DNA from: Escherichia phage UE-S1
Length of the DNA: 64,000 nt
Sequence record: ON568341.1
Direction: 5' to 3' (one strand)
Positions 2,405-50,952 of the stretch are shown one piece after another (position 1 is the stretch's first letter; each line of letters begins with the position of its first letter). The notes below the pieces were generated by a model that was not told the origin of the DNA, made no database searches, and was given only the letters and a program-made list of their open reading frames with translations. Position numbers and translations under genes: made by a program.

Positions 2405-2964
2405 ATGGCCATGATTACCAATTCCATAGACTAGAATTTAGACACTGTGTTGCATATGCAAAAACATTAATGTGCATCATTGACACTCTTTCATCCGAAC
2501 AATTTCGTAAGGATAATGATTTATTGCTGAAAAAAGGTCGTATAACATCATCCGATATCGGTATTGAACTATTTGTTGAAATCAGTGTTGATACCGGAGA
2601 CAGTACAAGGGCTGGTTGTATAGGTCATATTGGTACACATTGTTTCACATGGAATCCAAATACAAGTCAAGTTAGAATTGATTATAGAAATTCACGTTGG
2701 GTTGATCTTAGTACTGAATCAGATTTAGAATCAGTTATGTTCCAGCTAAGTTTAATTCACGATCCTAATGAACTTCTTTATATTATTACTTTCAGTTATC
2801 TGTTACAAAACTACGATAGTCCATCAGGGTTTTTCATAGAATCAGATATAGATGAAATTATGGAAGAGATTCCTAGTTTAAAGAATATTCTGGAAAAAAA
2901 AGATTTCTATAATGACTTCAGAGATTTATACGACATGCACTTGGAGTTATTTAAGAATGGATAA
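2401..2964 (+). CDS. family-1 paralog
   Basis: 187 aa ORF; ATGA overlap with upstream; LESVMFQLSLI motif. Confidence 0.7.
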   Translation: MNGHDYQFHRLEFRHCVAYAKTLMCIIDTLSSEQFRKDNDLLLKKGRITSSDIGIELFVEISVDTGDSTRAGCIGHIGTHCFTWNPNTSQVRIDYRNSRWVDLSTESDLESVMFQLSLIHDPNELLYIITFSYLLQNYDSPSGFFIESDIDEIMEEIPSLKNILEKKDFYNDFRDLYDMHLELFKNG

Positions 2965-3475
2965 AGATGATATTCTAATTAGACTAGTTCAAAGTTTGAT
3001 AAAGTTCGCAAATAATGATATCAATACATACAAAGTAGGTGATATTGAATTCAAATCATTTGGTATGTACGGTGATGACGAAACATATTATGCTTCAATG
3101 AAATTTCAAGAATTTCACGAGATGTTAATATCGTTATCATACGAAGATGTTGACCCAAGATGGAGTTCCAGTATTTCACTATCGAGAATGGTAATTCGTA
3201 GTAAGCATCGTTACATTTCGTCAAAGAATACTCCTAACTTGATTAATATTGTGTTGAATGAAAATACAAACCCCCTATCTAAATATGATATCGTACCTTT
3301 AACCGATGAAGCAATTTTTCAATTGAGTACCATTTGTGATGAAGATGTGATATCATGTATGAAAATTTATGAGAAAGTTGGGGGTGATATTCCCATGAAC
3401 TATTACCTAACTATAGATGAAACGTATCTCCAAGATGATGTTCTGGCGTACATTGACAGTGTTTTACCAAAATAA
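2957..3475 (+). CDS. family-1 paralog
   Basis: Track ORF 2912..3475; likely start ATGGATAA at 2957 overlapping upstream stop; TDEAIFQLSTI motif. Confidence 0.65.
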   Translation: MDKDDILIRLVQSLIKFANNDINTYKVGDIEFKSFGMYGDDETYYASMKFQEFHEMLISLSYEDVDPRWSSSISLSRMVIRSKHRYISSKNTPNLINIVLNENTNPLSKYDIVPLTDEAIFQLSTICDEDVISCMKIYEKVGGDIPMNYYLTIDETYLQDDVLAYIDSVLPK

Positions 3476-3497
3476 AGACCCGTTATGGGTCTTTTTG
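3475..3497 (+). terminator. rho-independent terminator candidate
   Basis: Hairpin AGACCCGTTATGGGTCT followed by T-rich run directly after the stop codon. Confidence 0.55.
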
Positions 3498-3551
3498 TGT
3501 TTATGGCTTTACAAGAGCATTCAGGTGTGTTATACTTGATTTCAAATAGAG

Positions 3552-4130
3552 TTGGAGGAATCTATGAGTACTGAATTAATTAAAGAAGTTACCTTACTTC
3601 TGAAGCATTGTTTTAAGTTCATTCCTGATACTGGTTCACGCCAGTACATTAAAGTTAATGAGAAATATAACATCAATATCCTTGTATCTGAAACTGCGAG
3701 CAGCTATGCTAACATTGAGTTGGATTCTGAAGAAAAATATACAGTATTACAAATCATAGCAGATGTACAACGTAAACAAGATTATCGTTCTTCATTTGAC
3801 AACGATTATCTGTGTGTTTGCTCAAACTTCAGTGAGAATAAAATTGTGTATAAGAATTTATACACACATGAAGTGATTGATACATATAATTATAAAATTT
3901 CATCTGATGAATACAATGTGCTAATGTTCAACGCAAACCTTTTGTATGATGCCAGTACTGTACGCTGTTTAGAGTTAGCATATAAAATTCCAAAGATCAT
4001 GGAAAGAAAAGATTTGATTCACTTTAAAACTATTTTAAAATACAGTACAAAAGAATTAGAAGATTTAGTACAGGCTCTTAAGAATTTCATTAATGAACAT
4101 GTACCTGTTAAATTCGAGGATGCACAATGA
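3552..4130 (+). CDS. family-1 paralog (divergent)
   Basis: 192 aa ORF; RBS GGAGG upstream; same size class; degenerate motif EYNVLMFNANLL. Confidence 0.6.
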   Translation: MEESMSTELIKEVTLLLKHCFKFIPDTGSRQYIKVNEKYNINILVSETASSYANIELDSEEKYTVLQIIADVQRKQDYRSSFDNDYLCVCSNFSENKIVYKNLYTHEVIDTYNYKISSDEYNVLMFNANLLYDASTVRCLELAYKIPKIMERKDLIHFKTILKYSTKELEDLVQALKNFINEHVPVKFEDAQ

Positions 4131-4711
4131 ACCATATCAGAACTAAAATTTTGAGACTCATGCATGACATTTCAGAACTTTCAGAGATTCATGACATTAC
4201 AGAAATTGTTGAATTTGATGATTATCGACTGAAAATTGAAAACAAATCCAAACATCGTTTTGGTTCAGTTCAGTTGGATGTATATAAAACTTATGAATTT
4301 TCTAAAAAAATTAAAAGTTCATGGGATACGATTACTATGTACATTCGCACATCCAGAAATCGTGAACGTATTGGTTCTATTTCTTCTAATATGATATTTG
4401 CGAATGCATTACATGAAAAAATGAATAAAATTGTAGAATCTGATTTCAGTAAAGATGATGGTTTTATTGGTTTGGATGTTCCACCAGAATTAGATCAAAG
4501 TGAAGATATTCGAGATGCATTCATTTTCCAGAAATCATTGTTGGACAATTACAAAGAATTCGAGTACTTAATGCTTTGTTACGATACTGCAAAAATTCTT
4601 GATTGTGGTGAACTAGTTATGTACAATGATTTTATCAATTGCAAGACTGATGTTCTGAATACACTACTTCAAAATATAGAATCTGTTAAGGAAAAATATG
4701 AACGCTTATAG
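4127..4711 (+). CDS. family-1 paralog
   Basis: 194 aa; ATGA overlap; DAFIFQKSLL motif. Confidence 0.7.
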   Translation: MNHIRTKILRLMHDISELSEIHDITEIVEFDDYRLKIENKSKHRFGSVQLDVYKTYEFSKKIKSSWDTITMYIRTSRNRERIGSISSNMIFANALHEKMNKIVESDFSKDDGFIGLDVPPELDQSEDIRDAFIFQKSLLDNYKEFEYLMLCYDTAKILDCGELVMYNDFINCKTDVLNTLLQNIESVKEKYERL

Positions 4712-5276
4712 TTATATGACAGAACGTCATCAGATATTATATGATATCAGTGCTAAAATGTTATCAATTGTTAGTAGTACAAAAGAAATTGAAAAACAAT
4801 ACCTCATCCGTGATGTAGCAATTTCATCTAAATGTTGGTCCAATGAATATTACGATCACGGTATTCTTACTATTTCTGGGGCTAGAAATATTTGTATTGT
4901 AAAAAATAAGAAAAAATGCAATGAAGAGTGTGAAATTAGTTCTGATATCCAAATAAAGGATGATGGAAGCTTTTCTCATCATCCATTCCATATTAGTACT
5001 ATTGGTGTTTTATATAATATTAAAGTACTATTCGGTGATGAAGAGTATGTGTTAAAAGCTATCAATCCAGAATCAAGTACAGTTGAAGAAGAACTGTTCC
5101 AGATGAGCACGGTTATACCTGAAGAGGTTCTTAGTACTGTTATTTTTTGTAGTTTAATTTATCATGAATACAAAAAGAACCAGTTCGATTTCCACATGTT
5201 AGGAACGTACATCTTCAATAATTTGAGCGTAGATCGTTTAAAAGCATTAAATTCAGCGATGGATAAGGTTCTATAA
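4698..5276 (+). CDS. family-1 paralog
   Basis: 192 aa; VEEELFQMSTV motif. Confidence 0.7.
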   Translation: MNAYSYMTERHQILYDISAKMLSIVSSTKEIEKQYLIRDVAISSKCWSNEYYDHGILTISGARNICIVKNKKKCNEECEISSDIQIKDDGSFSHHPFHISTIGVLYNIKVLFGDEEYVLKAINPESSTVEEELFQMSTVIPEEVLSTVIFCSLIYHEYKKNQFDFHMLGTYIFNNLSVDRLKALNSAMDKVL

Positions 5277-14405: not shown

Positions 14406-14422
14406 GACAAAATAGAAGTTAA

Positions 14423-14463
14423 TGATATAATGTGAGGTGACAGTATATACTGTCACCTTTTTT
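14423..14463 (+). promoter_or_regulatory. TGATATAAT element followed by terminator hairpin
   Basis: TGATATAAT at 14423-14431; hairpin GGTGACAGTATATACTGTCACC plus T6. Confidence 0.45.
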
Positions 14464-14469
14464 AATCCT

Positions 14470-15136
14470 GAAAGGTTCCTATAAGGAAATGATTAAAAGC
14501 CTAATCCACTCGAAAATGTAGAGGGTAGATGAGTAGTCCTTTCAGTACGAACAGCAGAAGAAACCCGTCAGATGTGGGCATAGTTTGAACCCCTCACGGC
14601 AATGCGGCTCAGAAGAAACCCGTCAGATGTGGGCATAGTTTGAACCCCTCACGGCAATGCGGCTGTATAAAGAACTCCAATAGGATAAAGAGAGTTCCTC
14701 GATAGACATATAAGGATCGCACCTTACCAATTATCTAAGGGAGATTTCATAAGAAATATGCGGTCGGAATTATACAATATAGTTGCGTCCAAATTTTGTG
14801 AAATCAAATACAAGTACTGGTCATATGGTATTTGTATTATGTGTCGGGATGTTTAAGACCGACGACCGTTGCTACAAGAACCGCGATAGAGAGAAACAGA
14901 GCAACCCGCTTTCGTCTCGTAAGAGAATTCGTGATATGAACTATGTGAAGGCCACCAGCGTCAAACTTTTTTGTTCTTTCCCCTGCGGGGGGATGAAATA
15001 TGCTCAAGCAAACCTCGTCAATATTAATTAAAAGACTTTATAATACTTGTAGAATTGTACATGCACCGCATGGAGAATTCTACTGATGTTGATGTAATCA
15101 ACATCACGTATATTCATTGATGTTTCCATAGGAATA
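14470..15136. other. GC-elevated non-coding island, candidate structured RNA or cis element
   Basis: About 0.7 kb without a credible RBS-led ORF; visibly higher GC than flanks; several short hairpins (CCCCTGCGGGGGG; GATGTTGA..TCAACATC). Confidence 0.3.
14555..14664. repeat. perfect 55-bp direct tandem repeat, 2 copies
   Basis: CAGAAGAAACCCGTCAGATGTGGGCATAGTTTGAACCCCTCACGGCAATGCGGCT at 14555-14609 and again at 14610-14664. Confidence 0.9.
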
Positions 15137-15682
15137 ATGATGGCATTTATTAAAAAAGAAAAAACTATTACTTATAAAACTTTGAATTTTGATGATTGTA
15201 TTAATCAATCACAGGACGAAAATATTTTTACTGGATATGTGGTTATTAAAGAAAAAGGATGCATTTCTTATATAAAGGAATTGCAAAATGGCATTGAAGT
15301 CACTTCAGTTAAATTACTTCCTACACAAAAACCAACAATATCAAAAGCCCAGTACGGTAATTATTTCGAGGAAAGATACAGTAATAATTTAATAAGTGTT
15401 AAAGCTCATATTGTAAAAGGAGAACTAGAAGGAGAATATAGAAAATTCAACCCACAAGGAAAATGTGTTTGGGTTAAATACTACAATTCAGGTGTTGACA
15501 TAACATCTGAAATTATTGAGTTTTTAGGATTGACATGTACACCTGAAACTCTTCATGACTACAAATTTAATACTGAAGAAGAGTTTAATCTGATGATGCG
15601 TTATGGATCACATTTTAAATTTTTATATGAATATAACGTTGACAGTAGTATTTTTGATAAAATAGTACATAATTGTCTATAA
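15137..15682 (+). CDS. hypothetical protein
   Basis: 181 aa ORF. Confidence 0.55.
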   Translation: MMAFIKKEKTITYKTLNFDDCINQSQDENIFTGYVVIKEKGCISYIKELQNGIEVTSVKLLPTQKPTISKAQYGNYFEERYSNNLISVKAHIVKGELEGEYRKFNPQGKCVWVKYYNSGVDITSEIIEFLGLTCTPETLHDYKFNTEEEFNLMMRYGSHFKFLYEYNVDSSIFDKIVHNCL

Positions 15683-15698
15683 CAAAAGGATTTATATA

Positions 15699-16220
15699 AT
15701 GTCGAAGAAGGATACTTCGAATAAACATTCAGTACATTTCAGTACTGGAAAAGATAACTGGACAACCCCAAAAGATTTTTTTGAAGATTTAGATGAGTTA
15801 TGGGGATTTACACTTGATGCTGCTTGTGTAGATGAGACTGCATTGTGTGATAATTTTTTCACTCCAGAAGATGATTCACTGTCACAGGATTGGGGAAATA
15901 ATATAGTTTGGTTGAATCCACCATATAGTGACTTAAAAACATGGTTATCTAAAGCTGTAGATGCATATAATAACGGAGCAACTGTAGTTATTCTTGTACC
16001 CTCAAGAACCGATACAATTGCTTTTCAGGATTATGCTGCTAAAATATGTGATTGTATTTGTTTTATTAAGGGAAGATTGCGATTTGGTATACCAGAAGAA
16101 CCCGATAAGAAAACTGATTCAGCACCATTTCCTTCGTGTCTGATAGTTCTGGATAAGTACTTAACCACTGCTAAAATCAATTGTCTTAAATCTCTCGGAT
16201 TGGTGATGAAGAATTTATGA
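15699..16220 (+). CDS. DNA N6-adenine methyltransferase, phage Dam-like
   Basis: NPPY motif (VWLNPPYS) and N-terminal FTLDAACVD region, as recalled for the phage N6-adenine MTase family. Confidence 0.7.
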   Translation: MSKKDTSNKHSVHFSTGKDNWTTPKDFFEDLDELWGFTLDAACVDETALCDNFFTPEDDSLSQDWGNNIVWLNPPYSDLKTWLSKAVDAYNNGATVVILVPSRTDTIAFQDYAAKICDCICFIKGRLRFGIPEEPDKKTDSAPFPSCLIVLDKYLTTAKINCLKSLGLVMKNL

Positions 16221-16750
16221 AAGAAACATGTATATTATCATTTATGAGATGTAACCCAGTCCACAATGGACATGGTTTAGTTTTTGAAAAGGCCAAAACA
16301 TTACAAGAACAGTACAATGCTGATTTAAAAATTTATCTAAGCACTAGTACTGACAATATAAAAAACCCACTACCACCTGAACTAAAAATGTATTATACAG
16401 AGGGATTCTATCCTTCAGTGCAAGAGAACATCTACACAGAGGACAATCTATTTGATATAATGAGAGAACTGGATGGAAAGTACTTAGATGTTCTCTTCAT
16501 ATGTGGTTCTGACCGTATTGATTCTTTTCAGAAAACCCTTGACACTTACAATGGGAAGTTGTATAATTTTTGTAATATAAAAGTAATTCAAGCAGGTATT
16601 GACCGCCAATCAAGTCGATATAGCTCAACACAAATGCGTAAGTTTGCCAAAAATGAAGATTTTGATAGTTTTCGTGAGTTTTTGCCTGGAAATGACGAGA
16701 ACTTAAAAATTCAATTATTTGAAGATGTTATAAAATACATGAGGAAATAA
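16217..16750 (+). CDS. cytidylyltransferase-fold nucleotidyltransferase, NMNAT-like
   Basis: HxGH motif (NPVHNGH) near N-terminus and SSTQMRK (ISSTxxR-like) near C-terminus; ATGA overlap with upstream. Confidence 0.6.
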   Translation: MKETCILSFMRCNPVHNGHGLVFEKAKTLQEQYNADLKIYLSTSTDNIKNPLPPELKMYYTEGFYPSVQENIYTEDNLFDIMRELDGKYLDVLFICGSDRIDSFQKTLDTYNGKLYNFCNIKVIQAGIDRQSSRYSSTQMRKFAKNEDFDSFREFLPGNDENLKIQLFEDVIKYMRK

Positions 16751-16752
16751 TT

Positions 16753-17046
16753 ATGTCAGTACTGTTCAAAACTAATCCAGTACTTTGGGAACAAAATGAA
16801 CAATCAGGATTTCGTTCCATCCATGTTGAATACAAAGGTAATACAGTAGTTGCAATTATTGCTAACAAAACTCTAGGAAAATGGACCGCACAGGTTGTTC
16901 CTATGGGCTATTCTTATACATCTGATGAGGTTCAATTTTTAGCTGAACTTTATCGTCAAGTTCCTTTTATTATTAATGTGTTAGAAGGCAATGATACATT
17001 ATCACATGAAGATGTGATTGATTTTCTTGGAAACTTACATGTGTGA
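16753..17046 (+). CDS. hypothetical protein
   Basis: 97 aa ORF 2 nt after upstream stop. Confidence 0.5.
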   Translation: MSVLFKTNPVLWEQNEQSGFRSIHVEYKGNTVVAIIANKTLGKWTAQVVPMGYSYTSDEVQFLAELYRQVPFIINVLEGNDTLSHEDVIDFLGNLHV

Positions 17047-17326
17047 TGAAATAAATCTTACAGGATATTTTTTACAAGAATCTATGATTAAATTTAGTGA
17101 ACATTTCCCAGTACTGGATGGTATCGAAATGTGGCATGTCAAACCACTGTTCCACACTTTCAGTAAAGAGCACAAAATGTTATTGACTGAGGCGAGTAAA
17201 TCAAATAACATATGTGAAATCAAAATTGGTGTAAATGTCTATAAAGGGATGGTTATCTTTTTTGACAATAACAGCAACTACTTTTATATTGTTAAGGAGC
17301 ATTACGTTGACAAATACAAATACTAA
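17018..17326 (+). CDS. hypothetical protein
   Basis: 102 aa ORF. Confidence 0.5.
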   Translation: MIFLETYMCDEINLTGYFLQESMIKFSEHFPVLDGIEMWHVKPLFHTFSKEHKMLLTEASKSNNICEIKIGVNVYKGMVIFFDNNSNYFYIVKEHYVDKYKY

Positions 17327-17915
17327 TACATACTTCCGTTATCTTCGCTTAGGTCTTTCCCTGCGACCGATCCGTGGAAAGTGCGATTCACTCGCGGACC
17401 TTGACTATGCATATGCATTACATCATGAAGGTGTACAGTATGTATTGGGTGATTATGGTGAATTTGAAGAAACAAATGACAGTACTGGAATTAATGCTGG
17501 TGTAGATAATCTCAACAACATTGCAAACAGTTCTCGTCATGATATTGTATTACAAATCCAGAACTTTATTGAGCAACACACAGGAAAACGTGTTTGGTGC
17601 TATGTCGGAACTGATGCACAAATGTCTATTTCATTCGGTAATGATGATGGATATGTCGCACAGCTAATTATGGATTTTGAATCTGAAGAGAAGTTTTTAG
17701 AATTTAAAGAGAAAATCATCAAATCACTCGTTGATATGGGTGTCCCCGAAAATAAAATGCCAGAAGTTCAAAATATTGATGAATTTGTTTTGATTCCATC
17801 TGATGAGAAATATGATGCAATGTTTACTGCTCTTGATATTCCTGGAGTTATTGTGGAGTACTTTGATGATGGTGATGATAGTATCTATATAGATCTAGAT
17901 GACGACGATGAATAA
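17235..17915 (+). CDS. hypothetical acidic protein (poly-Asp/Glu C-terminal tail); start uncertain
   Basis: Track ORF; no in-frame ATG between 17238 and about 17620; C-terminus DDGDDSIYIDLDDDDE; GC-rich stretch 17340-17400 inside the 5' part. Confidence 0.45.
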   Translation: MSIKGWLSFLTITATTFILLRSITLTNTNTNTYFRYLRLGLSLRPIRGKCDSLADLDYAYALHHEGVQYVLGDYGEFEETNDSTGINAGVDNLNNIANSSRHDIVLQIQNFIEQHTGKRVWCYVGTDAQMSISFGNDDGYVAQLIMDFESEEKFLEFKEKIIKSLVDMGVPENKMPEVQNIDEFVLIPSDEKYDAMFTALDIPGVIVEYFDDGDDSIYIDLDDDDE

Positions 17916-17920
17916 TATAT

Positions 17921-17948
17921 AGCCCGACATAAGTTCGGGCTATTTTTG
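17921..17948 (+). terminator. rho-independent terminator candidate
   Basis: Hairpin AGCCCGA-CATAAGT-TCGGGCT followed by ATTTTTG. Confidence 0.55.
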
Positions 17949-17959
17949 TAAGGGGATAT

Positions 17960-18235
17960 ATGAATTATAAAGTTCTACAATATACATACAGTGTTTTGTT
18001 TGATTTACATCACAATGGAAGATATCTCAATACAATACGAGAAAACACATTTACTCATATGTTATGGATTGATTACTTAGAAACGATTCGTGCATATTTT
18101 GTTAATACTGAGATAATCATTCGTGGTAAAAAACAGAAGATTCAACATGTTAATAGTTATGGTGGTAAATTAACTCTAACATTTACCGATAATAATACTA
18201 ATGAAATGTGTTGTATCGAGTTGGTGAACATATGA
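17960..18235 (+). CDS. family-2 small paralog
   Basis: 91 aa; N-terminal MNYKVLQYTYSVLFDL pattern shared with downstream ORFs. Confidence 0.6.
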   Translation: MNYKVLQYTYSVLFDLHHNGRYLNTIRENTFTHMLWIDYLETIRAYFVNTEIIIRGKKQKIQHVNSYGGKLTLTFTDNNTNEMCCIELVNI

Positions 18236-18498
18236 ATTATAAAGATTTCCAATTAACATATAAGATTATTCGCAATCTAGCACACAACAATGATAGCCCT
18301 AGTCTAGAAGACACATGCACAGAAATGATCCATACGATTCGTGCAAAGATTGAAGAAAATTTCAGTACTGTTATTATTAATGATGACCATGCAGAATTTT
18401 CTGATATAATCATTAGACGTGATGGTAAAGTTGAGGTTCAGTACTACACTGATTTTGGATTTACAAGTGTACCGTTGGAGATATTCCCTTGGGATTAA
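18232..18498 (+). CDS. family-2 small paralog
   Basis: Track ORF 18208..18498; ATG at 18232 overlaps upstream stop; MNYKDFQLTYKII. Confidence 0.6.
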   Translation: MNYKDFQLTYKIIRNLAHNNDSPSLEDTCTEMIHTIRAKIEENFSTVIINDDHAEFSDIIIRRDGKVEVQYYTDFGFTSVPLEIFPWD

Positions 18499-18800
18499 AT
18501 TTAAATGATATACAATTCACTTATAAGGTACTATATGATTTGTATGATGCATACCTTGTTAGTAACAAAATAGGTTCACATAACCCAACCAAAGAACAAT
18601 CATTTATTGATTTATATATTGAGTACTTAGATTCTATTGAAAACTATCTCAAAAAGAATTACAGTACTTTTATCGATGGAAATGATACATTCGATTTCTA
18701 TGGTGTGCAATCATATGATGGTATAATCCATGTTCAATTTCAGGAAAGAACCGATAGGGAATTTATCGAAATTAAAGTTGTGAAGTTGGTGAATTTATAA
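18489..18800 (+). CDS. family-2 small paralog
   Basis: 103 aa, probable TTG start; LNDIQFTYKVLYDL. Confidence 0.55.
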   Translation: MGLNLNDIQFTYKVLYDLYDAYLVSNKIGSHNPTKEQSFIDLYIEYLDSIENYLKKNYSTFIDGNDTFDFYGVQSYDGIIHVQFQERTDREFIEIKVVKLVNL

Positions 18801-40281: not shown

Positions 40282-42183
40282 TTACGCACTGATTGTTACA
40301 GTTGCAGTATCTGTTTTATTACCATCAGCAGTAGCCACTGTAATGACTACAGAACCTTCTTCTAGAGCAGTTACTAATCCCTCATCACTAATAGATACTT
40401 TAGTAGGTTCATCTGCACTATAAGTTACTGATTTGTTAGTTGCGTTAGATGGAAGAACTTCTGGAACTAGTTGAACTGTTTTAGTACCTGATAGTGAAAG
40501 TTCAGTAGTTTTAGGTGTTAAACTAACACTGGATACAGGAACTGGAATATTAACAGTAATAACACCTTGACCTGTTTTACCACTTCCATCAGCAGCAGTT
40601 GCGATAATGTTTGCAGTACCATTAGTTAGTGCAGTTACAATACCAGTACTAGCATCAACTTTTGCTACAGCAGGTTCACTAGAAGACCATGTTACAGATT
40701 TATTAGTTGCGTTAGATGGAAGAACTTCAGCAGCCATTGCTTGAGTTGCTTTAACAGCAGTCAATGTTTTAGTTGCTGGAGTAACATTAATAGATGCTAC
40801 AGGAACTGGAATATTAACAGTTACCACGCAAACTTTAGTAAATCCACCATCAGATGTGGTTGCTGTAATATTTGCAGTACCGTTTGCAACAGCAGTGATT
40901 AACCCAGTTGGACTTACCGTTGCGACACCCTCAGCAGAAGTAGTGTATGAAATATCTTTACGACGAGCGTTATCTGGAATAACAGATGCAGTTAATTGTT
41001 GAGTAGCACCTACCGAAGTTAGGGTTGCGGTCAACGGAGTCATATTAATACCAGTTACTGGGATCGTTACATCAATCACTGATTCAGCAGTTTTAGCACC
41101 ATCATCAGTGGTAACAGTAATAGTTGTAGTACCGTTATCAACCGAAGTTACTAGACCAGTATTACTAACTTTTGCTACGTCTGGATATGAAGAAACATAT
41201 GAAACTGCTTTATTGGATGCAGTTGCAGGAGCAACGGTTGTTTCTAATTGTTTAGTATCACCTAATGTTGAGAATGTATAAGTACTAGGAGTCATAGTGA
41301 CACCAGATACCGGTGTTTTCACAGTGATAGTAGTAGTATCAGTTTTAGCACCATCTTCGGTTGTTGCTGTAATCACCACTGTACCGTTAGCAACACCAGT
41401 TACTAGACCAGAAGTAGGGTTAACGGTTGCTACATCAGGTGTTGCTGAAGACCATGTAACGTTTTTATTAGTTGCATCATCAGGAGATACTGTAGCCGTT
41501 AATTGTTGAGTACCGCCAACGTTAATTGTTGCAGTTTTAGGAGAAACAATAACACCACTAACTGGAGTTGTTACGGTAAATGCACAAACATCGGTGAAAC
41601 CACCATCATGAGTAGTAACTGTTACATTTGCATTACCATTAGCACGGGCAATTGCTAAACCAGTTTCAGCATCAACTTCAACTATTGTTGGAGCAGAGGA
41701 ACTATAACTTACTGTTTTATCATTTGCATAATCTGGATCAATTGTAGCTGATAGCTGTTGTGTACTACCAACTTTAAGTGCTACAACTTTAGGTGAAATA
41801 ATAACACCATCAACTGGAGTAGTATAATCACGTTTAACCACACGACCATTGTTCAATTTAATAATACGACCCATATAAAGAGTAGTATATCCCTTACTAA
41901 TCCCATCATCTACATAAATCATGAATGAATTGTCTTGAACCATATTAATTGCGTCTACTGGTTTAACGGAATTTGGAATGTCGATACCACGGGTATCATA
42001 CCAACACATGGAAACTTTGTAATAGATATCACCATTATCATTTATGAGATCATAAACGTTACTGGAACGTTGACGGTTAATATATAAAGTTTCGGTTAAC
42101 ACCTTACCATCGATTTTAGCGACAGAAACTTTAATACCACCAATACCAAATGGCAATTTACCTTCACTAGATATTGCTTTCAT
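40282..42183 (-). CDS. Ig-like (Big_2) repeat protein, putative virion decoration or adhesin
   Basis: 633 aa on minus strand; about 120 aa N-terminal domain followed by about six tandem repeats (VSPKTATINVGGTQQLTATVSPDDATNK..W.S....VATV); TATAAATA motif upstream. Confidence 0.65.
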   Translation of the reverse strand: MKAISSEGKLPFGIGGIKVSVAKIDGKVLTETLYINRQRSSNVYDLINDNGDIYYKVSMCWYDTRGIDIPNSVKPVDAINMVQDNSFMIYVDDGISKGYTTLYMGRIIKLNNGRVVKRDYTTPVDGVIISPKVVALKVGSTQQLSATIDPDYANDKTVSYSSSAPTIVEVDAETGLAIARANGNANVTVTTHDGGFTDVCAFTVTTPVSGVIVSPKTATINVGGTQQLTATVSPDDATNKNVTWSSATPDVATVNPTSGLVTGVANGTVVITATTEDGAKTDTTTITVKTPVSGVTMTPSTYTFSTLGDTKQLETTVAPATASNKAVSYVSSYPDVAKVSNTGLVTSVDNGTTTITVTTDDGAKTAESVIDVTIPVTGINMTPLTATLTSVGATQQLTASVIPDNARRKDISYTTSAEGVATVSPTGLITAVANGTANITATTSDGGFTKVCVVTVNIPVPVASINVTPATKTLTAVKATQAMAAEVLPSNATNKSVTWSSSEPAVAKVDASTGIVTALTNGTANIIATAADGSGKTGQGVITVNIPVPVSSVSLTPKTTELSLSGTKTVQLVPEVLPSNATNKSVTYSADEPTKVSISDEGLVTALEEGSVVITVATADGNKTDTATVTISA

Positions 42184-44295: not shown

Positions 44296-44304
44296 GGATT
44301 GCGT

Positions 44305-45057
44305 ATGATATCAGAAAAATTTATAAGTAATGAAGGAAACAAGAGATTACTTATCATCTCAGGAGCAGGTCTTTCCGTTGAAAGTGGGATGGAGCCATTT
44401 CGATTTGATGATGGCTTATGGGATACATTTAAAATTAATGACGTATGTAATATTGCAAATTTAGATACAAAATATCATGTTGTTCATTCGTTTTATAACA
44501 CACTGCGTGTTAAACTGGGTCAATGTGAACCAAATGCAATGCATTATTTTATCAAATCCTTAGAGGATCAATATGGTGATTGTTTCCTTCATATGACCTC
44601 CAACATGGATGATCTTTATACACGTATTGGTGGTAAAGAACTCAAACTTCATGGTAATTTGTGTGAAGTGATAGAAAATTATAGTATTAATGGTGATGAT
44701 TATAACATTGTTAACTGTGGTTATGAGCCATATATACCAAAACATGATGTTTTTGCTAAACCAAATGTAGTGATGATTGGTGAATATCACCGTTACGTTG
44801 ATGGTGTTCGTTTGCCAATATACGAAGAAAGAAATAATGTTTTAAAAACACTTACCGAAAACGATACTGTGATTGTTATTGGAAGTAGCGATACAGTGCT
44901 TGTGTGGTCCAGATTAGCTGCGGCATTGCCCTGTTATAGCGTTAATGTTAACATTCGCAAAAATGATAATGATTTTCTGTTCAATGAAAAAATTATCAAA
45001 CCAGCTACCAAAGCAATACATCAATTAGAGACTATAATTAAGGAACGTATGAAATGA
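44305..45057 (+). CDS. Sir2-family NAD-dependent deacylase / ADP-ribosyltransferase
   Basis: Track ORF 44299 (TTG); ATG at 44305; ISGAGLSVESGMEPFR (GAGIS..SGIP.FR), TSNMDDL (TQNID.L), KLHGNL, VIGSS motifs. Confidence 0.75.
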   Translation: MISEKFISNEGNKRLLIISGAGLSVESGMEPFRFDDGLWDTFKINDVCNIANLDTKYHVVHSFYNTLRVKLGQCEPNAMHYFIKSLEDQYGDCFLHMTSNMDDLYTRIGGKELKLHGNLCEVIENYSINGDDYNIVNCGYEPYIPKHDVFAKPNVVMIGEYHRYVDGVRLPIYEERNNVLKTLTENDTVIVIGSSDTVLVWSRLAAALPCYSVNVNIRKNDNDFLFNEKIIKPATKAIHQLETIIKERMK

Positions 45058-45605
45058 GTGTTAAAGAAGTTCCTTTTGGTGAATATGGTTCACGTGCCAA
45101 TTTTGTATTTTGCTATTTCTTTGCAAGAAAATGTAACCCTTACGAAAATTACGAATTGAATGATATACCAGAAGTAAATTTAGTATTACTCCAATTACGA
45201 TGGGATGGCCTTCTAGGGGGATGTGGTGGGACAGTTGAAAGTACTGATATCTCACTAGAAGATGCGTTACGTCGTGAAATTCAAGAAGAGATGGATTACA
45301 ATATTTTTGTTTCCCATCTTCGACCACTTAAAACTTTTGAAATTTATCCAGGTGCAAACAGTCATAGTTTTAGCTATGAAGTAACCTATGATGAGTTGAA
45401 ACACATTAGAGATGGATACACTAATGCTAAACATGCGAGTGCTGAAGTGGCTGGTGTAAATTTATGTCATATTTCTCGTTATTCTAAGGGACAAAATCGA
45501 GAAGCGGGATATAATAATCTTATGACTCAGAACTTCATTGGTACAGCAAAACAAGAATTGGAGTATCTGGTTCAAAAAGAAAACTTACTAATTAGTTATC
45601 TATAG
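45054..45605 (+). CDS. Nudix hydrolase
   Basis: 183 aa; ATGA overlap with Sir2 gene; Nudix box GGCGGTVESTDISLEDALRREIQEEMDY. Confidence 0.7.
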   Translation: MSVKEVPFGEYGSRANFVFCYFFARKCNPYENYELNDIPEVNLVLLQLRWDGLLGGCGGTVESTDISLEDALRREIQEEMDYNIFVSHLRPLKTFEIYPGANSHSFSYEVTYDELKHIRDGYTNAKHASAEVAGVNLCHISRYSKGQNREAGYNNLMTQNFIGTAKQELEYLVQKENLLISYL

Positions 45606-49980: not shown

Positions 49981-50952
49981 ATGAAAACTAAAATTATTTC
50001 TGAACAAAAAATCGGCAATACTACAGTACTGAATATTGAAGTTCAAGATCTTAGTAATGTTCGTTCTCTTACTGTTTGTACTCAGAGAGATGATTTGACT
50101 GATTTTTATAACTCCGAATACATGTCAGAAGAACATTGGGATATGGGATGGTTAGACGGTAGTAGTTATATCAGTTCTCGTTATAGTTTTGGTTCTCATG
50201 AAAATATTGAACAAGTAAAAAATGAGTATATTAAACTCAGTGATACTATTGAAATGAAAGAAGAAGATTGTGTAGAACTTTTCATTTTTGAATTCGATGC
50301 AGGAAATGGTAATTCATTACTAGTAAGTAATATTGAAGAACATTTAATGTATCATGATATTGAAGATGTAGATTTTAAAAGTATTAAAAATGTTGTTCAT
50401 ATGGTTGGTGGTAGTATTACTGATGATTCAGATATCGGTCATAATATTTCACTGTGCTTAATTTCTCATCCAAAAACTCGTGGTTTTAAAGTTCCACAAG
50501 ATGAAACTTACGTGTTTGAAACTGCTGATGAAGGAATTTATCCTTGGAATGATTATGTAGAATACTATGGTCATTTCTGTTCTGATATAAAAGAACTGAA
50601 AAAAGGCGAACGATATTTTGATATGTTCCGTGCAGCACAGCGTTTAGTACTGAATAATACTGAACTATTTCCTGATCGCGGTGAAGAAAATATGATTGAT
50701 ATTATCTTCAAGAACTATGATTATGTGCAGAACATTCCTGATAATGTACATTTGGAATATGTTCACGGTTCTTCAAACAAATTCTATAATATTGAATTGA
50801 ATGTTTCAGTGTGTGAAGTAATCATTGAGTACGGTGCTATTGGTAAAACCAGTACTACCGATGGTGAAGAATTCGAAACTATTGAAGAAGCACGTAAGTT
50901 CTTCGAGAAGAAAGTAATTTCCAAAATTAAAAGTGGTTATATCCCAAAATGA
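49981..50952 (+). CDS. protein with C-terminal WGR-like domain
   Basis: 323 aa; C-terminus NKFYNIEL...EYGAIGK...EEFETIEEARKFFEKKVISKIKSGY resembles WGR domain. Confidence 0.45.
   Translation: MKTKIISEQKIGNTTVLNIEVQDLSNVRSLTVCTQRDDLTDFYNSEYMSEEHWDMGWLDGSSYISSRYSFGSHENIEQVKNEYIKLSDTIEMKEEDCVELFIFEFDAGNGNSLLVSNIEEHLMYHDIEDVDFKSIKNVVHMVGGSITDDSDIGHNISLCLISHPKTRGFKVPQDETYVFETADEGIYPWNDYVEYYGHFCSDIKELKKGERYFDMFRAAQRLVLNNTELFPDRGEENMIDIIFKNYDYVQNIPDNVHLEYVHGSSNKFYNIELNVSVCEVIIEYGAIGKTSTTDGEEFETIEEARKFFEKKVISKIKSGYIPK

Follow-up and report, generated by a model that had tools for sequence, protein, structure and literature searches.

A T1/HP1-type Dam gene and a HIGH-motif nucleotidyltransferase gene in a conserved, probable operon of Escherichia phage UE-S1, with a structured RNA upstream

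The locus analyzed here lies in a 64,000-nucleotide (nt) stretch of Escherichia phage UE-S1 (sequence record ON568341.1), referred to below as the window, and comprises two adjacent open reading frames (ORFs), ORF1 and ORF2, encoding a predicted DNA adenine methyltransferase (Dam) and a predicted nucleotidyltransferase (NTase), respectively. Judged from its sequence, the window comes from a jumbo coliphage of the Rak2-like type (Asteriusvirus), with bases 14500-18500 sharing 93-94% nt identity with Asteriusvirus PBECO4, 121Q, phAPEC6, G17 and Sharanji. The records of these phages already name both genes, the first as 'DNA methyltransferase' or 'methylase' and the second as 'cytidyltransferase' or 'putative cytitidyltransferase'. 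The initial annotation of this DNA had described the ORF pair, its ATGA overlap and the NPPY, HxGH and SSTxxR motifs, all of which were confirmed from the sequence at the following positions:

15699-16220, + strand: ORF1, 173 amino acids (aa), predicted T1/HP1-type phage N6-adenine DNA methyltransferase (Pfam Dam, PF05869)
ORF1 residues 37-43, + strand: FTLDAAC, likely S-adenosylmethionine (AdoMet)-binding motif upstream of NPPY, read from the sequence
15915-15926, + strand: NPPY, catalytic motif IV (ORF1 residues 73-76), read from the sequence
16217-16220, + strand: ATGA stop/start overlap, four bases common to the TGA stop of ORF1 and the ATG start of ORF2
16217-16750, + strand: ORF2, 177 aa, predicted HIGH-motif nucleotidyltransferase, free-standing form of the phage 'cytidyltransferase' family (PHROG 3041/395)
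16262-16273, + strand: HNGH (HxGH), nucleotide-binding motif (ORF2 residues 16-19), within F-M-R-C-N-P-V-H-N-G-H
16622-16639, + strand: SSTQMR (SxTxxR), second signature motif (ORF2 residues 136-141)

The opposite strand of the gene pair holds ORFs of 41-56 aa only. Ratios of nonsynonymous to synonymous polymorphism (pN/pS) of 0.05-0.2 for ORF1 and ORF2, obtained against PBECO4 and 121Q, indicate purifying selection on both. Because of this selection and of the scores against the family models (PF05869, PHROG 3041), the ORF pair is more than a product of chance. Both genes are real, annotations of them exist in dozens of public genomes of Asteriusvirus, and the pair is ordinary. As far as sequence can tell, we consider it quite probable that the locus holds two ordinary conserved jumbo-coliphage genes in one operon, a T1/HP1-type Dam and a phage-specific HIGH-motif NTase that is probably not an NAD+-making enzyme.

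The adenine methyltransferase and its predicted target

The product of ORF1 matches PF05869 with an E-value of 7e-32 (110.9 bits against a cut-off of 28.1) over residues 16-156, corresponding to positions 7-149 of the 169 in the model, and PHROG 111 ('DNA methyltransferase') with an E-value of 3.4e-57. PF05869 is the sole Pfam family matched at E<=0.1, and PF02086 (MethyltransfD12), the class of the E. coli and T4 Dam proteins, is not matched. The description 'Dam-like methyltransferase' given in the initial annotation thus stands at the family level (PF05869, NPPY) but does not extend to the E. coli/T4 Dam class. Homologues of ORF1 occur in 2,121 phage records, Stx and T1-like phages among them. 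ORF1 is 98% identical to 121Q gp417, and its pN/pS is 0.05-0.09.

In common with the Dam proteins of T1, HP1 and Stx phages (VT2), ORF1 has its Pfam family, a size of about 170 aa, the NPPY motif, its location in a phage genome and its orphan status, that is, the lack of a partner endonuclease. It differs from them in being merely 30-35% identical to the Stx-phage and T1-like proteins and in narrowly missing the cut-off of the NCBIfam equivalog TIGR01712 (91.6 vs 97.05 bits), which leaves the Pfam-level assignment unaffected. These matches place ORF1 in the T1/HP1/Stx-phage Dam family as a predicted orphan N6-adenine methyltransferase acting on DNA. Orphan Dam genes are routine in phages.

The enzyme would transfer a methyl group from AdoMet to adenine in the phage DNA. 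Characterised T1/HP1-type Dam members methylate GATC, and by analogy with characterised PF05869 proteins GATC is also the likely target of ORF1. The benefit to the phage would probably be protection against restriction, or assurance of full methylation; self-protection of the phage genome by the predicted methyltransferase, as originally suggested, is a reasonable inference.

Restriction-type palindromes are avoided to an extreme degree, both in the window and in the whole PBECO4 genome as pieced together from loci L001, L002 and L083-L088. GCGC was found 0 times against 18 expected in the window, and 0 times against 154 expected in 348 kb of PBECO4. The 6-mers CTGCAG (55 expected), CCATGG (33), GGATCC (29) and GCATGC (19), and others too, have zero occurrences. 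GTAC is over-represented (1.4), and GATC remains at about half of expectation, with 93 occurrences in the window and 614 in PBECO4 (observed/expected ratio, O/E, 0.43-0.52).

The nucleotidyltransferase family and its nearest characterized relatives

ORF2 matches PHROG 3041 (5.2e-56) and PHROG 395 (3.9e-24), two profiles named 'cytidyltransferase', and is a direct member of this family (PBECO4 gp147, GAP32_069, Syn9 gp184, P-SSM2), with the same invariant residues and fold. Its identity amounts to 93-97% with Asteriusvirus proteins and to 33-39% with Erwinia-phage and cyanophage proteins. The family is very large. An exhaustive hidden Markov model search of cluster representatives returned 3,632 representative proteins at E<=1e-3, and tblastn located homologues in 561 phage records, of which 458 belong to Synechococcus or Prochlorococcus phages or bear the name 'Cyanophage'. 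An alignment of 43 diverse members has H19, R100 (in a GSDR motif), S136 and R141 as invariant residues, with R11, P14, G18, N50, K57, Y111-N112 and R130 nearly so. The first histidine of HxGH (H16) is usually replaced by threonine, as in the majority of distant members, and most relatives read GRxNPxH/TxGH.

ORF2 carries both signatures of the HIGH-motif nucleotidyltransferase superfamily, (H/T)xGH following the first strand and SxTxxR towards the C-terminus, together with the Rossmann-like alpha/beta fold of this class, the AlphaFold (AF2) model being confident (predicted local distance difference test 88.9). The assignment of a cytidylyltransferase-fold enzyme with HxGH and SSTxxR motifs was therefore right as to motifs and fold. 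Among the predicted viral structures of BFVD the ORF2 family forms its own tight cluster (TM-score 0.8-0.97). An annotated cyanophage nicotinamide mononucleotide (NMN) adenylyltransferase (NMNAT) reaches a TM-score of only 0.61 and falls outside this cluster.

As to characterised enzymes, the top Foldseek matches of ORF2 in the PDB are phosphopantetheine adenylyltransferase (PPAT) and nicotinic acid mononucleotide (NaMN) adenylyltransferase. Comparison of the family profile with PDB sequences gave MJ0951/TmcAL-like proteins (2.8e-5), NadR-like NMNAT (2e-4), PPAT (1e-3, over the full length) and MJ0541 (5e-3); direct PDB sequence searches with ORF1 and ORF2 returned nothing useful, and a shallow profile returned noise only. 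Matches of the 43 members to NCBIfam models favour NMNAT-type models over PPAT or FAD synthetase (TIGR00482 in 33/43, PRK01153 in 19/43, NadR in 19/43, PPAT TIGR01510 in 9/43). All of them are sub-threshold, and the curated NMNAT cut-offs are not reached, ORF2 itself scoring 17.4 bits against the 112.45 required by TIGR00482. Alignments by sequence between the family and NMNATs end at about residue 70; the region that binds nicotinamide ribotide in NMNATs lies in the central part of the domain. To the NadM, archaeal and NadR NMNATs (Francisella NadM 2qjt, M. jannaschii MJ0541) ORF2 is 13-16% identical; the NadM-type models are missed by about 95 bits, and alignment by sequence to these enzymes is limited to approximately the first 60 residues of ORF2. 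Membership in the PPAT family was not supported either: the profile-PDB E-value is ~1e-3, hhalign against a CoaD sequence gave a probability of 31%, the GSDR and YNGxxYNF motifs of the ORF2 family are absent from CoaD/PPAT, and there is no coenzyme A pathway context. The hhalign comparisons with single sequences of MJ0541, CoaD and TagD aligned the N-terminal motif alone and were set aside, as they do not discriminate substrates.

The nearest characterised relatives of ORF2 are thus the NadM/archaeal-type NMNATs and PPAT, and ORF2 is in neither family. The designation 'NMNAT-like' holds as an affinity to the nearest fold and not as family membership, and the homology search that had been proposed as a check placed ORF1 in PF05869 and ORF2 in PHROG 3041/395 without bearing out membership of the NMNAT family. 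By its motifs and fold, ORF2 would bind a nucleoside triphosphate, most likely ATP, and would transfer the nucleoside monophosphate to a phosphate-bearing acceptor, releasing pyrophosphate.

The database name 'cytidyltransferase' is unsupported by these comparisons and the label is probably wrong in substance, the fold being adenylyltransferase-like. Were the name correct, ORF2 would make a CDP-activated alcohol or sugar of the CDP-glycerol type for remodelling of the cell envelope, a reading that appears very improbable. In its favour are the GenBank and PHROG names of the family, a weak match of ORF2 to the Pfam model CTP_transf_like and the analogy to glycerol-3-phosphate cytidylyltransferase that is repeated in papers mentioning an ORF2-family gene, which call its function unclear. 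The name, however, goes back to similarity-based annotation of P-SSM2. Moreover, no GCT or CCT cytidylyltransferase model is present among the 25 NCBIfam families most often matched by the 43 members, the alignment to a TagD sequence covers 25 N-terminal residues, and the cytidylyltransferases (GCT/TagD, CCT, ECT) were not the closest class to ORF2 in fold and sequence.

A role in NAD+ salvage had also been proposed for the NTase. Under this proposal ORF2 would be a true NMN/NaMN adenylyltransferase that rebuilds NAD+, for example from NMN released by an NAD-dependent ligase or drawn from host pools, in support of replication or as an answer to NAD-depleting defence, and would constitute a one-gene relative of NARP2/NARP3. 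Reconstitution of NAD+ by phages is well established. Motif 1, in its GRxNPxHxGH form, resembles that of archaeal, NadM and NadR NMNATs, the N-terminal 55 residues align with an MJ0541 sequence at 87% hhalign probability, and NMNAT models make up most of the sub-threshold NCBIfam matches. In some relatives the domain is joined directly to a P-loop kinase, an arrangement known from NadR, and NAD-linked enzymes are encoded within the window, namely a Sir2 protein (44299-45057, + strand) overlapping a Nudt16-like Nudix hydrolase (45054-45605, + strand). Against this, every NMNAT model is missed widely (17 bits vs a cut-off of 112), PPAT is equally close in structure and is the sole class aligning over the full length, the nicotinamide-ring binding region of NMNATs could not be aligned with the ORF2 family, and the annotated cyanophage NMNAT lies structurally outside it.

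Genomic context bears on the same question. Phage GAP32 has its own copy of the Dam-NTase pair (GAP32_068/069); at a distance of 22 kb downstream it encodes a canonical NadM-type NMNAT/ADP-ribose pyrophosphatase (GAP32_112) and a Nampt (GAP32_114). That GAP32 keeps the small NTase despite this NARP2-type set makes a distinct function likelier than redundancy. In the RefSeq annotation of the whole PBECO4 genome, none of Nampt, NadR, PnuC or a second NMNAT is named, which is weak evidence because about 83% of its genes are 'hypothetical'. Thus neither the gene names of PBECO4 nor GAP32 provides the context of an NMNAT pathway, that is, a Nampt, RNK, PnuC or Nudix partner with no second NMNAT, and the genome papers on fEgEco12, JP4 and Sharanji are silent on NAD genes and on an ORF2-type enzyme. 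The NARP2 (Nampt and NMNAT) and NARP3 (PnuC and a NadR-like protein) systems do employ phage adenylyltransferases of the HIGH type, the motif class of ORF2, against NAD-depleting defence, and the kinase fusion of some ORF2 relatives recalls NadR. However, no NARP2/NARP3 partner gene is present beside ORF2, and GAP32 holds its NARP2-type set elsewhere in the genome. With no named partner in PBECO4 and a separate NadM and Nampt in GAP32, the salvage role is left unsupported; ORF2 is probably not the NAD+-making enzyme of these phages, and both its assignment as a true NMNAT and the physiological role attached to it are doubtful.

Two further observations concern NAD-linked genes. In GAP32 (L170, 25570-28776) the NadM-type NMNAT/Nudix and Nampt genes occupy the syntenic place upstream of Sir2, and neither is listed in the annotation of the syntenic PBECO4 stretch. 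A WGR-domain protein is encoded at 49981-50952 of the window.

The architecture of the family differs between phage groups. The jumbo-phage form, as in ORF2, is a bare 177-aa domain, whereas its cyanophage and marine counterparts are extended at the N- and C-termini or have kinase, DUF5824 or Hint modules attached. In cyanomyoviruses the proteins are 380-420 aa long, with extra N- and C-terminal regions, and the gene adjoins those for a DUF6267 protein and a second large protein in the replication gene region (Syn9 gp183-185, locus L089). Elsewhere the domain constitutes the N-terminal module of phage proteins of 500-1200 aa that also contain Zeta-toxin/AAA_33 P-loop kinases, DUF5824 and Hint modules (proteins P0030-P0170, loci L008-L011). 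Comparison of the fused kinase with adenylate kinase, Zeta and PNK gave weak matches only and no clue to the acceptor.

A further proposal is that ORF2 acts on RNA or another macromolecule, as do TmcAL and class I tRNA synthetases, or is a conflict effector delivered early, the jumbo-phage protein being a free-standing copy of a domain from injected multidomain proteins. Besides the N-terminal position of the domain in the large fusions, the points in favour are MJ0951 (TmcAL family) as the top profile match in the PDB, the conserved basic residues R11, K57, R100, R130 and R141, and the detection of the cyanophage S-SZBM1 homologue in purified virions (PMC9146016). However, the MJ0951 match is confined to the C-terminal motif common to both, RefSeq does not list PBECO4 gp147 with the proteins labelled virion structural, and a survey of polyvalent proteins is silent on such a domain. 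We regard both forms of this proposal as unlikely. By analogy with the S-SZBM1 virion protein and from the architecture of the fusions, it may be speculated that the domain acts early in infection. A broader possibility, with a modest chance of being correct, is that the ORF2 family is a phage-wide enzyme family with a new activity, such as synthesis of NAD-like or other dinucleotides or nucleotidylation of macromolecules, that operates early in phage-host conflict.

Arrangement and conservation of the likely operon

ORF1 and ORF2 are flanked by further genes, designated A, B, E and F, most of which appear to be cotranscribed with them. A likely transcription unit B-Dam-NTase-E-F was delimited from the ORFs, terminator-like sites, synteny and the layout in GAP32, the annotation of which has the same layout, between terminators:

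15137-17943, + strand: likely transcription unit B-Dam-NTase-E-F
15137-15682, + strand: gene B
15699-16220, + strand: Dam (ORF1)
16217-16750, + strand: NTase (ORF2)
16753-17046, + strand: gene E
~17235-17915, + strand: gene F
14434-14459 and 17919-17943: terminator-like sites, the unit ending at the hairpin 17919-17943
16539-16567, + strand: perfect sigma-70 consensus TTGACA-17-TATAAT inside ORF2, over the codons of the conserved LD..YNGKLYNF

Each of the 12 Rak2-like loci retrieved (PBECO4, 121Q, GAP32 and Erwinia phage Kaldavass included) has the Dam gene directly 5' of the NTase gene, and the whole block A-B-Dam-NTase-E-F, with products of about 285 aa (A) and 180 aa (B) upstream and of about 97 aa (E) and 190-228 aa (F) downstream, is syntenic in the same 12/12. 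Because all the flanking genes are syntenic too, the adjacency of Dam and NTase reflects the conserved block. The ATGA overlap was considered as a sign of coupling and rejected, since such an overlap recurs in 8 of 69 neighbouring gene pairs of the syntenic stretch in PBECO4 and the Dam-NTase junction varies in the relatives from an 8-nt overlap to a 6-nt spacer (-8 to +6 nt). It would rather reflect the dense operon packing typical of this genome. The 'coupled' methyltransferase and nucleotidyltransferase of the initial annotation accordingly finds no support beyond operon packing; synteny extends over all six genes of the block.

Several points weigh against the overall reading of two ordinary genes with the family assignments given above. 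ORF2 itself scores below the gathering threshold of Pfam PF01467 (CTP_transf_like; 15.6 vs 21 bits), a cut-off that several other members of its family pass. The family profile reaches its PDB relatives only weakly (E 3e-5 to 1e-2), the preference for ATP rests on a ranking of folds with small margins, and the literature search found no experimental work on any member of the ORF2 family. The under-representation of GATC (O/E 0.43-0.52) neither proves nor disproves GATC methylation. Finally, seven marine viral loci (L006 and L151, which are pieces of one contig, L014 at 4086-4991, L140 at 2901-3845, L061, L066 and L161) encode a DNA methylase of PF01555 (N6_N4) in the vicinity of the NTase gene, either as its immediate upstream neighbour or two genes upstream, separated from it by a sigma factor gene. 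This methylase is unrelated to PF05869 and thus represents a second methylase family in the NTase neighbourhood, which leaves a small door open to some functional link between the NTase and DNA methylation.

Such a link could take the form of a joint modification of DNA by ORF1 and ORF2, in which activation of a small molecule or of a group attached to the DNA by the NTase would allow the adenine to be modified beyond methylation. The persistence of Dam directly before the NTase gene in the 12 Rak2-like loci, although NTase identity drops below 40%, and the unrelated PF01555 methylase one or two genes upstream in the seven marine loci are consistent with this proposal. However, the synteny of the entire block means that adjacency adds little information, in about 137 of the 144 loci from marine viruses and cyanophages the neighbours are DUF6267 and other genes, with no methylase close by, and the family also occurs in kinase fusions and virion-associated proteins unrelated to methylases. 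We know of no DNA hypermodification pathway that uses a HIGH-type nucleotidyltransferase, which also counts against joint modification, and we hold it to be most unlikely. The presence of methylases of two unrelated families near the NTase could be a sign that the genes share an anti-restriction or anti-defence module.

In terms of the reading favoured here, an ordinary Dam and a phage-specific NTase in one operon, the pair by itself is of little consequence, as the genes are already annotated and an orphan phage Dam is routine. Its residual value resides in the very large ORF2 family (458 cyanophage records), which carries a probably wrong 'cytidyltransferase' label; the substrate of one ORF2-family enzyme would annotate thousands of phage genes.

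The sigma-70 consensus inside ORF2 is kept in PBECO4, 121Q and one further Rak2-like contig. This conservation is confounded, because the protein motif LD..YNGKLYNF shares its codons. PBECO4 has 29 perfect sigma-70 matches, all on the transcribed strand; 24 of these are intergenic, for the most part 30-60 nt ahead of a start codon. Gene F (17235-17915, + strand), with which the operon closes, belongs to PHROG 15575, has no Pfam match and ends in a strongly acidic tail (DDGDDSIYIDLDDDDE). Its listed start is probably too far upstream, as the PHROG match begins at residue 26.

A structured RNA upstream of the operon and a further feature of the window

Between genes A and B lies an ORF-poor region of 730 nt (14406-15136) whose nucleotide sequence is conserved in every Rak2-like locus and which contains the following features:

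14423-14431, + strand: promoter-like extended -10 element TGATATAAT, ahead of the structured RNA
~14499-15023, + strand: structured RNA, about 500 nt long, immediately 5' of the B-Dam-NTase-E-F operon
14555-14609 and 14610-14664: perfect 55-nt tandem duplication in the structured RNA, copying one helix domain (consensus helices 3/4)

Identity in this region is 69-75% over 400-540 nt among the Rak2-like loci, with blocks at 87-91%, whereas the flanking proteins are far more diverged (the Kaldavass NTase, for example, has 39% amino-acid identity). All six reading frames are equally conserved and indel lengths are not multiples of three. A structure alignment of nine orthologues and three paralogues yielded 66 predicted pairs in RNAalifold, with compensatory changes in 36 of them. 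Of the alignment cells at these pairs, 95.9% are paired, vs 36-48% with slid partners, and the covariation score is 0.44 vs about 0.1 in controls; none of 500 shuffles attained the observed values. Invariant G-U pairs identify the + strand as the RNA strand. Rfam 15 contains no family matching the element, and a tRNA scan of the region was also negative. On this strong covariation support, the upstream element is a previously unclassified conserved structured RNA, and a better lead than the Dam-NTase pair itself.

BLAST in distant mode placed matches to the RNA at 276 positions in 70 phage records, with 4-5 per genome, restricted to jumbo phages that infect Enterobacterales or Xanthomonas. The four copies of PBECO4 (near 38, 94, 195 and 305 kb) share the transcribed strand, and each occupies an unannotated gap of 600-840 nt after an extended -10 element, TGnTATAAT. 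A covariance model of the 3' domain found exactly one copy in the window (14805-14937), four in PBECO4 and no match in 590 kb of other sequence, which included PA5oct ncRNA001/002. For the distant relative PA5oct, RNA-seq revealed four highly transcribed regions without ORFs (PMC7318152); the lack of a covariance-model match led to rejection of ncRNA001/002 as homologues of the upstream RNA. The copies were also rejected as marks of replication origins, as the four in PBECO4 lie off the GC-skew turning points and skew follows the direction of transcription. The 55-nt duplication is absent from PBECO4 and every other aligned relative.

Elsewhere in the window, a 633-aa ORF (40282-42183, - strand) consists of six Big_2 Ig-like repeats. 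The only gene annotated on the opposite strand at about this position in PBECO4 is smaller (126 aa), and the 633-aa product resembles the 'Ig domain' tail protein GAP32_111.

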